This document shows, piece after piece, positions 60,166 to 64,000 of a stretch of DNA of 64,000 nt. The number at the start of each line of letters is the position of its first letter. Within the stretch, counting starts at the first letter, position 1. Source of the stretch: a virus; the IMG/VR virus record IMGVR_UViG_3300019776_000212, positions 32,212-96,211 of that record. The stretch is one strand, 5' to 3'. The position numbers and the translations under genes were made by a program. The notes below the pieces were generated by a model. The model did not search any database, was not told where the DNA came from, and worked only from the letters and a program-made list of their open reading frames with translations.

Positions 60166-60255
60166 TGGTGCGTCATGGTCGGAATCGAACCACGCAGTCG
60201 AAGGACACCGAGTTTACAGCCCGGCGGGAATCCCAGTTCCCATAAATCACGACGC
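60166..60255 (-). tRNA. tRNA-Tyr(GTA), atypical D/T arms
   Basis: CTGTAAA loop, long variable arm, CCA. Confidence 0.75.
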
Positions 60256-60260
60256 ATAAT

Positions 60261-60335
60261 TGGCTCCAGAGTGTGGGATCGAACCACAGACCAACCGGGT
60301 AACAACCGGACGCTCTACCGCTGAGCTACACTGGA
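60261..60335 (-). tRNA. tRNA-Asn(GTT)
   Basis: Cloverleaf, G73, CCA. Confidence 0.88.
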
Positions 60336-60853
60336 ATTTTACTAATTTCTCTGATGAACTCATCTTTGAAGTGGATTGGAACCCACTCACCACTTTCATC
60401 AGATACTGAGAACTTTTCGAGAAGAAGCTTTTCGGCTTGCCTTCTGTCGAGTGTAAACTCGTAATGAGTTACACTGTATGCTCTATATGGATCATATGTT
60501 TGGAACTGAGACAGCCTCTTTGCAAGGTCTGTAGTCATTCCAATCTTACAATGGTCTGGGAATGCGGGGTTCTCTATAAGATAGACAACTCCAGCTGGTA
60601 TCTCTGTAAGCTTCGCACCAAGATACACGTTATGTTTTATGAGGGTCCTACCTGCTAGCTTCCTAGCAAGTCGTTTGTCAGACGATCTCATCCTACCGTT
60701 ACCAGCTGTAAACAGCTCTCCGTAGGTTTGTACATAATCGGAGAGAATTTCCTCCGTTATCGTGTATGTTGTGTCTGGGATTTTACCAGACTTGTGAAGC
60801 GAATCAAGGACTTTTAACTCCTTGTTAGAGAAACCTTCCACAGAACCTCCCAT
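60326..60853 (-). CDS. GIY-YIG (T5orf172-like) free-standing endonuclease
   Basis: GVVYLI...KIGMT.....RL..FQT.P...E...GEW; likely GTG start at 60841. Confidence 0.75.
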   Translation of the reverse strand: MGGSVEGFSNKELKVLDSLHKSGKIPDTTYTITEEILSDYVQTYGELFTAGNGRMRSSDKRLARKLAGRTLIKHNVYLGAKLTEIPAGVVYLIENPAFPDHCKIGMTTDLAKRLSQFQTYDPYRAYSVTHYEFTLDRRQAEKLLLEKFSVSDESGEWVPIHFKDEFIREISKIPV

Positions 60854-60874
60854 GTAAGTTTGATTAAATTTAAG

Positions 60875-61050
60875 GCCCGTTACTTTTTGACTGCTCCACG
60901 GGGCCGGGACCAGAGATGCTGGATCACCTCCTTATATTGTGTGCACGCACACTATCAAGTTGGCTTACAATCTCACGATTGTGTTCTACAGCTTCTGTAA
61001 TGCACAGTTGTGGCGGACATCAGGGATGTATGGCCAATGTCGTGCATGTT
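60875..61050 (-). ncRNA. candidate ncRNA with 17-nt complement to the 16S rRNA 3' end
   Basis: TAAGGAGGTGATCCAGC at 60934-60918, no start codon downstream. Confidence 0.45.
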
Positions 61051-61053
61051 TGA

Positions 61054-61123
61054 TTTGAACGTGAGGCATGCTTGCTGGGATGTCCACTTAAGGAGGTCTG
61101 GGCTCTGATGCAGCACGTTCAAA
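61054..61123 (-). ncRNA. candidate hairpin RNA displaying anti-SD ACCUCCUUA
   Basis: 10-bp closing stem TTTGAACGTG/CACGTTCAAA. Confidence 0.45.
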
Positions 61124-61125
61124 TT

Positions 61126-61202
61126 TGTATTTGAATGGTTGGACTCGAACCAACGCACACCACTCCTGCGTGGCAGCTCTTCCGACTGAGCTTACATTCA
61201 AA
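61126..61202 (-). ncRNA. tRNA-like RNA with 6-nt anticodon loop, no CCA
   Basis: Canonical D and T arms; GCCAC-GCAGGA-GTGGT. Confidence 0.6.
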
Positions 61203-61204
61203 TT

Positions 61205-61286
61205 TGGTAGCGAGACCGTGAGTCGAACACGTAGGCATCCGGTTATGAGCCGGGTGACAGTACCCTCCAGTCTTAGCCATCTCGCT
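61205..61286 (-). tRNA. tRNA-Met(CAT), enlarged D region
   Basis: CTCATAA loop, TTCGA, CCA. Confidence 0.8.
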
Positions 61287-61292
61287 ATTGTT

Positions 61293-62567: not shown

Positions 62568-62741
62568 GTACAGAGGTGTGCTATTACGCCAAAGGGAGAT
62601 TCAGCCTTACCGTTTCCGGGGTGCCTCTTCACTTTGCCAGTGTACGTCCCTCCACCCCACTACAGAGCTTCAACGAGCTGATAGTACACCTAGTCCCACT
62701 CTTTAAAGGATGGCTGCTTCTAAGCCCACCTTCCACTGTAC
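62568..62741 (-). ncRNA. 23S rRNA GTPase-associated-centre (uL11 site) mimic RNA
   Basis: AGGTGGGCTTAGAAGCAGCCATCCTTTAAAGAGTG...CGTAATAGCACAC, closed by GTACAG/CTGTAC. Confidence 0.7.
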
Positions 62742-63857: not shown

Positions 63858-63946
63858 TGGAGGCGCGTGAAGGAATCGAACCCTTGCCGTATCTCTACAG
63901 CAGCCGGGGGTTCAAGCCCCGTTTGTACCCTTTGTAGCCACACGCC
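63858..63946 (-). tRNA. tRNA-Ser(TGA)
   Basis: Long variable arm, TTCGA, CCA. Confidence 0.8.
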
Positions 63947-64000
63947 AGAAATTGTGAACTGCCCTTGCCAAGGGATTGACGGTGGACCTTGCCACTGCCC

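Follow-up and report, generated by a model that had tools for sequence, protein, structure and literature searches.

Locus and 16S rRNA complement

The phage has a complete genome of 96,211 bp with direct repeats at its termini, and the stretch of DNA analysed here, which we call the window, is 64,000 nucleotides long and makes up the right-hand two thirds of that genome. By BLAST, the phage groups with Pseudomonas myophages of ~95 kb that are related to Otagovirus and Pakpunavirus. A minus-strand cluster at 59.6-63.9 kb contains at least 17 tRNA genes, identified with ARAGORN and Rfam, and all tRNAs and genes at the locus under study lie on that strand. Within this cluster, plus-strand positions 60918-60934 read GCTGGATCACCTCCTTA, and the corresponding minus (tRNA) strand, 60934..60918, reads TAAGGAGGTGATCCAGC.

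An initial annotation of the window had described this segment as a 17-nt perfect complement to the 16S rRNA 3' end, and comparison with Pseudomonas genomes upholds that description. The reference was a 38-nt Pseudomonas 3' end that is matched exactly in many Pseudomonas genomes (it is also exact in some other genera, mostly gammaproteobacterial), and the 17-mer is the exact complement of its last 17 nt. In P. putida PSE7, the Rfam SSU model stops on the final A of the 38-nt end (L140:2944). Because the 38-nt end is matched and the SSU model ends there, the 17-mer can be described as the exact complement of a host-type 16S terminus.

By chance, the two strands of 64 kb would be expected to contain any one 17-mer ~7e-6 times. 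The next-longest complements to the 16S tail in the phage's 96 kb are one 11-mer, one 10-mer and ten 9-mers, and the 11-mer and most of the 9-mers are ordinary ribosome binding sites (RBSs) with an ATG at normal spacing. The exact 17-mer occurs only six times in IMG/VR, in unrelated contexts. A lone 17-mer could arise by chance over a very large scan; the present one rises above chance because it is conserved inside a covarying RNA, whose elements, together with the next gene, are as follows.

60868..61052, minus strand: whole non-coding RNA, ends approximate; 87% identity over 180 nt to the Amme-3 group; no conserved ORF
61000..61047, minus strand: variable 5' hairpin P1 (AUGCACG...UGUGCAU), present in the MFE fold
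60989..60996, minus strand: closing helix, 5' strand (AGAAGCUG), which pairs with 60914-60921
60967..60982, minus strand: inserted hairpin P2 with a GNRA tetraloop; three of six pairs show compensatory changes
60939..60952, minus strand: inserted hairpin P3 (GUGUG-CGUG-CACAC), invariant in the three lineages that have it
60918..60934, minus strand: 17-nt complement of the 16S 3' end, UAAGGAGGUGAUCCAGC; its first 13 nt (60922-60934) match the free tail
60914..60921, minus strand: closing helix, 3' strand (CAGCAUCU), which overlaps the final 4 nt of the 17-mer
60874..60913, minus strand: H-type pseudoknot; stem S1 pairs 60907-60913 with 60891-60897, and stem S2 pairs 60898-60905 with 60874-60880
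60326-60853, minus strand: T5orf172/MUG113-domain gene (GIY-YIG clan), between the RNA and tRNA-Asn

The RNA is about 125-185 nt long and occupies the stretch between an upstream hairpin and the T5orf172 RBS. No ATG, GTG or TTG lies 5-13 nt after the GGAGG of the 17-mer, in agreement with the earlier statement that a start codon is lacking at initiation distance. The only nearby GUGs either overlap the 16S-complementary segment, hereafter the arm, or lie 25 nt downstream within the pseudoknot stems. The GIY-YIG gene downstream likewise has an RBS of its own, as previously stated: a GGGAGG follows closely on the ATG at 60853 and is separated by 4 nt from a GTG at 60841, which is probably the true start rather than the ATG. 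This gene is absent at the same site in the related phages Amme-3, XD2 and Y1-MI, and it is therefore probably a free-standing insertion of the homing-endonuclease type.

ARAGORN and Rfam identified no tRNA or tmRNA in positions 60860-61120. With permissive thresholds, no Rfam 15 family came at or near its gathering score for the window RNA or for the unrelated members described below, and the searches returned noise and a partial match to the CC2171 family. SRP RNA, riboswitch pseudoknots and self-cleaving ribozymes were dropped as candidates for want of any Rfam signal. A comparison of the RNA with P. putida 16S, 23S and 5S rRNAs for a second rRNA contact or rRNA mimicry yielded only 9-mers.

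Several other features of the cluster were recorded. Directly upstream of the RNA, positions 61054-61123 (minus strand) form a stable 70-nt hairpin (-23.7 kcal/mol, z = -4) with the apical sequence ACCUCCUUA, which equals the last 9 nt of 16S rRNA and is perfectly complementary to nucleotides 1-9 of the 17-mer. This hairpin could mask the arm in cis; it is missing in Amme-3, XD2 and Y1-MI, where the RNA directly follows a tRNA, and on the plus strand its bases read as the SD and ATG of an 8-codon frame. Positions 61130-61201 (minus strand) hold a tRNA-like gene that scores 40.6 bits against the Rfam tRNA model, receives no ARAGORN call and is absent from the relatives examined. A further tRNA-like gene at 61208-61290 (minus strand), whose anticodon loop is CAU, whose D region is oversized and which encodes its CCA, is missed by both ARAGORN and Rfam and is ~79% identical to a Pakpunavirus segment annotated as tRNA-Met, as tRNA-Tyr or not at all. 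In a tRNA spacer, positions 62682-62735 (minus strand) give a local LSU rRNA match (model positions 1180-1233, the uL11/GTPase-associated centre; 26 bits, E = 8.6e-5). Weak tRNA-Sec matches in gaps of the array (60170-60255 and 63861-63947, minus strand; 28 and 32 bits) are probably tRNAs with long variable arms (Ser/Tyr/Leu type) missed by ARAGORN.

Conservation and covariation in Pseudomonas phages

Representatives of this RNA occur in Pseudomonas phages as a long form (8 genomes) and a short form (164 phage records), always on the tRNA strand. Five P. putida phages (the Amme-3 group) are 87% identical to the window over the 185 nt upstream of the T5orf172 gene, whereas the P. aeruginosa phage XD2 keeps the 3' 130 nt and the P. 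fluorescens phage Y1-MI keeps the 3' 63 nt. In these relatives, a tRNA(CAU)-like gene and tRNA-Asn flank the RNA, and the interval that it fills contains no ORF. The short form was found with a covariance model of the 3' 130 nt run with filters off, which retrieved the Pakpunavirus phages K8, PAK_P1 and phiMK. It is ~72 nt long, and the K8 sequence is AUUAGAUGCUGUAAGCCAUAGGAGGUGAUCCAGUAUCUCCCGGAGAGGCCCGGGUUAAAAACCUCC. The 164 records come from Pakpunavirus and Nankokuvirus (123 with the full length, and 41 PAK_P3-like Nankokuviruses with 82% identity), and the element is almost never annotated among them. In PAK_P4, the module begins 20 nt past the RNA-seq-annotated PAK_P4sRNA1. In PAK_P3, it lies ~40 nt downstream of the annotated promoter_18 and before tRNA-Tyr and sRNA2, at the head of a tRNA/sRNA transcript; its position next to a promoter is newly described here.

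With the covariance model R1, neither the closest IMG/VR relatives (L010, L011 and L012) nor Otagovirus 16Q yielded a homologue, and two P. putida genomes yielded no host copy. The same slot in L010:6940-7005, L011:1775-1835 and L210:2935-3000 holds a different conserved element of ~70 nt (GCUCCCCACG..CAGCCAGAUAGAGUGUGCUGU.UAAAUAUAGUCUCUAUC). The published PAK_P3 sRNA2 (L214:1806-1935) itself looks tRNA-like, with a 7-bp acceptor-type stem (GCUGUGU/ACACAGC), a canonical T arm (GGAGGUUCGAUUCCUC) and ~75 nt inserted between the two.

The short form (K8, PAK_P1, PAK_P4 and PAK_P3) shares with the window RNA the arm (AGGAGGUGAUCCAG), the UCUC junction, the H-type pseudoknot with its A-rich loop L3, the closing helix AGAnGCUG/CAGnnUCU and its location, which follows a tRNA(CAU)/Tyr-like gene. 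The window form differs in that its 16S complement continues to the very last nucleotide (UA-AGGAGG) and spans 17 nt, compared with 15 nt including a wobble in the short form. It also has two hairpins inserted in the loop, an added 5' hairpin and a pseudoknot of 7+7 bp rather than 5+4 bp. Both this enlarged 17-nt variant and its anatomy are new.

The six Pseudomonas-phage lineages have no invariant blocks other than GA-GCUG, AGGAGGUGAUC, AG and UCUC. The core arm is AGGAGGUGAUC(C/U)AG, and the loop 5' of it is wholly different in each type; the conserved stretch begins at AGGAGG, which is where the 16S complementarity begins. In the window, 60931-60911 reads AGGAGGUGAUCCAGCAUCUCU and aligns with K8, PAK_P3, Y1-MI and XD2, such that the arm is followed by YN-UCUC and, within ~5 nt, by an H-type pseudoknot whose S2 is formed by the S1 loop and the tail after an A-rich linker. 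There is no start codon and no conserved ORF. The initial annotation had named absence of conservation as grounds for giving up its reading, and we find the motif conserved in these relatives and present in other phage lineages.

The pseudoknot starts 5 nt downstream of the arm, and its loop L3 occupies 60881-60890 (UCAAAAAGUA). When the lineages are aligned, 98% of pseudoknot cells are paired, compared with 29-41% in slid-partner controls. Five of the 13 pairs carry compensatory (double) changes, and the covariation score was reached by 0 of 500 shuffles. For the hairpins, the picture varies. The P1 stem ends AUGCAC/GUGCAU become UUGCAC/GUGCAA in XD2, its interior is unconserved, and the 5' domain of Y1-MI is different. 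The P2 tetraloop is GUGA in the window, GCGA in Amme-3 and GAGA in XD2, and P2 is missing from the Pakpunavirus and Nankokuvirus forms. The small GUGUG/CACAC hairpin noticed earlier upstream of the 17-mer is real and corresponds to P3, although covariation offers no test of it because P3 is invariant where present; Y1-MI has a GAAA-capped hairpin in its place.

The last four nucleotides of the 17-mer (CAGC) double as part of the 3' strand of the closing helix. In the six lineages, four pairs of AGAnGCUG/CAGnnUCU are invariant and two alternate between G-C and G.U, while one position holds a mismatch (A.A or A.G) in four lineages and A-U or U-A in the remaining two. Paired cells make up 90% of the total, compared with 23-49% in controls with a slid partner strand. 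The free RNA therefore probably keeps the final four bases of the 17-mer paired, for which the evidence is only moderate because the same C-to-U changes would keep the 16S pairing too. For example, the two C-to-U changes of Y1-MI preserve pairing with both 16S rRNA and the internal GCUG and do not discriminate between them. Because CAGC probably pairs internally, the effective 16S pairing would be with the 13-nt free tail, and the loop-exposed part of the arm, UAAGGAGGUGAUC, exactly complements the 13 single-stranded nucleotides beyond helix 45. The previous claim was that the match reaches into helix 45; the CAGC more probably pairs with GCUG at 60989-60992 of the RNA itself. This probable use of the last four bases by the closing helix is newly described here.

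These data also bear on the strand from which the RNA is read. The plus strand reads exactly as the 16S terminus, and antisense RNAs are annotated near the PAK_P3 tRNA region, so one could propose that a plus-strand copy of the 16S 3' end serves as an anti-SD decoy. However, the tRNAs and genes at the locus are all on the minus strand, and the similarity to 16S rRNA stops at 17 nt with no helix-45 look-alike. Moreover, the G.U pairs in the helices fit the tRNA strand only: those in the closing helix and in S2 of PAK_P1 and L232 (assigned by hand) would become A.C mismatches in a plus-strand transcript. We regard a plus-strand decoy as extremely improbable.

The only recurrent weak Rfam match was to RF01867 (CC2171), whose consensus starts with GAAAGGAGGUGAUCCAGUGUCUC. 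The window RNA scores 12.4 bits (E = 1.6) over model positions 1-60 only, against a threshold of 75 bits. In the CC2171 members retrieved, which are from Alphaproteobacteria, the G of CCAG opens a GUG or AUG start codon that is followed by UCU and a short ORF (sORF) of ~20-26 codons (VSHCH...). These small mRNAs are of the rre type, and the position that holds their start codon reads GCA in the window, GCG in XD2, GUU in Y1-MI and GUA in Pakpunavirus, and the pseudoknot follows 5-6 nt later. The rre RNAs are defined by at least 16 nt of perfect 16S complement, which the window RNA exceeds with its 17 nt, and by a GUG/AUG start that ends the complement and opens a conserved sORF, which the window RNA lacks. 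On sequence grounds, the phage RNA is not an RF01867/CC2171 member, as indicated by its 12.4 bits, the missing start and the missing sORF. The link between the CC2171/rre RNAs and the phage arm is made here for the first time. Genes of the rre/CC2171 type that encode small mRNAs (GAAAGGAGGUGAUCCA-GUG-UCU-CAU-UGU...) are present on three IMG/VR contigs classed as viral (L225, L246 and L251).

Given that the arm matches an rre RBS up to the start codon, a giant SD might be imagined to drive initiation at an AUC, CUG or GCA of a tiny ORF, or to feed the T5orf172 gene 65 nt downstream, into whose ATG at 60853 the frame from 60931 is open. Some unrelated members described below also follow or overlap a mini-ORF (L232 and L249). 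However, none of the triplets found at the start position in the different lineages is a start codon. Reading frames are not conserved among the relatives, and the codons downstream of the arm covary as RNA stems, with compensatory substitutions in the helices, rather than being conserved as protein. The ORF readings that we tried (GUG in the arm, AUC, CUG and the frame into the T5orf172 ATG) were all rejected on this basis. In Amme-3, XD2, Y1-MI and K8 the next gene after the RNA is a tRNA, and in the window the T5orf172 gene carries its own GGGAGG. An unconventional start is, in our estimation, highly improbable.

Arm and pseudoknot in other phages

A scan of IMG/VR for AGGAGGTGATCYAGYNTCTC returned 47 loci. 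Roughly one third of them lie in coding sequence (EEVIQ..., GGDPAS...) and match by chance, and three are rre-type genes. The remaining loci carry a pseudoknot at the same offset from the arm, with stem sequences that are quite different. They represent ~10 distinct lineages other than the Pseudomonas phages (L221/234/247, L231, L232, L233/236/243/248/262, L245, L249 and others). In these unrelated members, the second stem always joins the first-stem loop to the tail past a UAA/A-rich linker. A simple pseudoknot finder with mononucleotide shuffles proved non-discriminating for single GC-rich sequences and was replaced by a swap test of loop-tail complementarity. For 12 family members, with loops and tails delimited by hand, matched loop-tail pairs had a mean complementarity of 4.9 compared with 3.1 for swapped pairs, and 0 of 20,000 permutations were as high.

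Because the IMG/VR search pattern contained the arm, arm conservation can be judged without bias only among the six Pseudomonas-phage lineages. An arm-independent pseudoknot pattern (TCTCCCGG..CCGGGTTA) returned mostly chance palindromic hairpins and added one divergent member, L280, whose arm GGGGGUGAUCC achieves anti-SD pairing via a wobble. Full-text literature searches with the arm sequence were dominated by the universal 16S reverse PCR primer. Taken together, the searches indicate that the window RNA is an enlarged member of a motif that has no Rfam family and is common to many unrelated phages.

The unrelated members reside in untranslated gaps, mostly of late operons, where they are found after holin genes and before an endolysin gene, an HNH-terminase module, a large terminase gene or a scaffold gene, and some finish in an intrinsic terminator. 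The initial annotation had proposed to look for enrichment in tRNA clusters; the element is not peculiar to such clusters, since most of its other members occupy late-operon gaps. In two members (L232:7240-7330 and L249:3010-3090), a well-formed mini-ORF with an SD, an ATG and 7-12 codons precedes the module, and its stop codon lies in the arm or overlaps the first few nucleotides of the arm, a hint that some members are connected with translation termination.

Only the Pseudomonas phages have known hosts, and those of the other members appear to be diverse as judged from sequence composition and neighbouring genes. The persistence of a 14-nt sequence in phages this varied favours a partner that is itself universally conserved, as the 16S 3' end is.

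The complementarity to 16S rRNA could instead be incidental, if the arm had another structural or protein-binding role, for instance as a processing signal, as a site for RsmA/CsrA or S1, or in a tertiary contact. Internal pairing is indeed predicted for part of the arm, its CAGC belongs to a helix with some covariation, and neighbouring conserved blocks such as AAGCCAACUUGAUAG have no rRNA complement. The AAGGAGGU within the arm also fits loosely what we take to be the RsmA/E consensus, A/UCANGGANGU/A, although the RNA offers a single GGA site and known Rsm sponges offer many. An exact match of 11-17 nt to one specified sequence would be very unlikely for an arbitrary conserved motif, and the arm is kept where composition and gene content suggest hosts that range from Firmicutes-like to high-GC, all of which share the 16S tail; to our knowledge, CsrA is not found in all such hosts. 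Furthermore, rre RNAs with the same arm bind 30S subunits (PMC5711450). We judge an incidental match to be improbable.

Candidate docking of 30S subunits and comparison with known RNAs

The RNA is conserved, folded and free of ORFs, its arm is an exact complement of the host 16S tail, and a pseudoknot follows 5 nt on. The explanation that we favour, and consider on balance probable, is that the 17-mer is the docking arm of a conserved, start-less and pseudoknot-backed module carried on a non-coding RNA processed from the tRNA cluster. We read the element as one that pairs with the ribosome without initiating translation because an invariant arm lies in an ORF-free RNA, its conservation starts at AGGAGG, the pseudoknot is suitably positioned and rre RNAs bind 30S subunits (PMC5711450). 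All steps beyond the complementarity itself are inferred from sequence.

In the proposed mechanism, the arm would bind a 30S subunit by pairing with its single-stranded 16S tail (nt 1530-1542), about twice as strongly as a normal SD. Predicted duplex energies with the 16S tail are -31.9 kcal/mol for the 17 nt, -21.0 kcal/mol for the free 13-nt tail and -12.2 kcal/mol for AAGGAGGU, a good SD. Pairing of all 17 nt would require opening of four helix-45 base pairs and of the RNA's own closing helix. The pseudoknot is placed where an mRNA must thread into the decoding channel and would block accommodation, leaving an RNA-30S complex parked on the platform, as with the structured rpsO mRNA. The docked complex should be unable to initiate because GCA replaces the rre start codon and the pseudoknot would obstruct the channel. 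Thermodynamic folds also pair part of the arm internally (GCC with GGU, and CUUGA with UAAGG), and access to the arm may be gated because of this partial pairing and because CAGC lies in the closing helix.

The likeliest outcome would be that the docked subunit shields or marks an untranslated late or tRNA transcript, or an excised non-coding RNA, against decay, much as STAB-SD elements do. Protection or marking seems likeliest because late transcripts carry the other members in 5' leaders and untranslated gaps. At the present locus, protection in cis is less evident than in late operons because tRNAs need no stabiliser. The main alternative outcome is an effect in trans on the free 30S pool, which is a serious option for an RNA excised from a tRNA cluster.

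As a full explanation, such a trans-acting modulator would be a stable excised RNA that builds up late in infection and occupies the anti-SD of some 30S subunits, thereby reducing SD-dependent initiation, chiefly on host mRNAs, or keeping the 16S tail protected or occupied against nucleases or hibernation factors. The RNA does form a discrete unit between tRNA processing sites, with hairpins P1, P2 (with its GNRA loop) and P3 that would be superfluous for a simple cis barrier, and its predicted affinity is above that of any mRNA. The same cluster contains the match to the 23S GTPase-associated centre and the ACCUCCUUA hairpin, which suggests a set of RNAs directed at translation. Set against these features, the phage's own genes rely on strong SDs, stoichiometric titration of tens of thousands of ribosomes would be demanding, and most other family members sit within mRNAs and are not excised. 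Moreover, a 20-fold overproduction of 17c-rreB did not slow the growth of B. japonicum (PMC5711450). We consider a trans-acting modulator unlikely. Wholesale sequestration of 30S subunits is likewise unlikely because phage genes use strong canonical SDs and heavy titration would hurt the phage. Of the earlier proposal of a 30S-binding RNA that does not initiate, pairing without initiation is the best-supported part, whereas a global ribosome trap fits poorly with the strong SDs of the phage.

A broader proposal, which we put forward as possible but doubtful, is that phages of many lineages carry an RNA device that captures 30S subunits without translation by means of an invariant 14-17-nt arm locked to a pseudoknot. 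At the present locus, this device would have grown into an autonomous RNA of ~185 nt that, beside a copy of the 23S GTPase centre and a 16S-tail hairpin, forms part of a ribosome-manipulating toolkit. If this were true, capture of 30S subunits by RNA alone would be a strategy common among phages, and phage tRNA clusters would have some of their unannotated 'spacer' accounted for. The motif is present in more than 170 sequenced Pseudomonas phages, candidates for therapy among them, and the module could serve synthetic biology as a compact part for ribosome tethering or RNA stabilisation.

Start-less SD elements that hold ribosomes are represented by few cases, namely STAB-SD, the SP82 stabiliser and the rre mRNAs. 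Among phage RNAs, species 1 and 2 of T4 (rnaC and rnaD) are stable, small non-tRNA RNAs that are encoded among tRNA genes and freed by tRNA processing. We know of no 16S complementarity in these T4 RNAs, to which the phage RNA is likened by description only. With regard to the pseudoknot, Marzi and co-workers are said to have described in 2007 how the rpsO (S15) mRNA has its SD paired to the anti-SD while a pseudoknot on the platform keeps the RNA off the decoding channel. This entrapment reportedly needs protein S15, is reversible and involves an mRNA with a real start codon.

The rre mRNAs (rreB and rreR; Hahn et al. 2016, PMC5711450) resemble the phage RNA in their 16-17-nt 16S complement and are the same through GAUCCAG-N-UCU. 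They differ in that a GUG or AUG start lies at the last base of the complement and opens a 14-26-codon sORF, and in that they have a promoter and a terminator of their own and lack a pseudoknot behind the arm. The rreB mRNA, with a 17-nt SD, binds 30S subunits strongly, co-sediments with them and is barely translated, and its ribosome association is lost when the complement is shortened (PMC5711450).

The closest functional precedent is, in principle, the STAB-SD of the B. thuringiensis cry3A mRNA (Agaisse & Lereclus 1996), a start-less SD that binds 30S subunits and blocks 5'-to-3' decay (PMC4113751). Like the phage arm, STAB-SD resembles an SD in its complementarity to the 16S 3' end and does not direct initiation, a likeness that for the phage concerns sequence. 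STAB-SD is a short unstructured polypurine tract near the 5' end of transcripts in Gram-positive bacteria, where it blocks RNase J1. The phage RNA, in contrast, belongs to a Gram-negative host, presents an arm of 13-17 nt in a closed loop and has a pseudoknot attached, and any effect that it exerts on RNA stability is putative.
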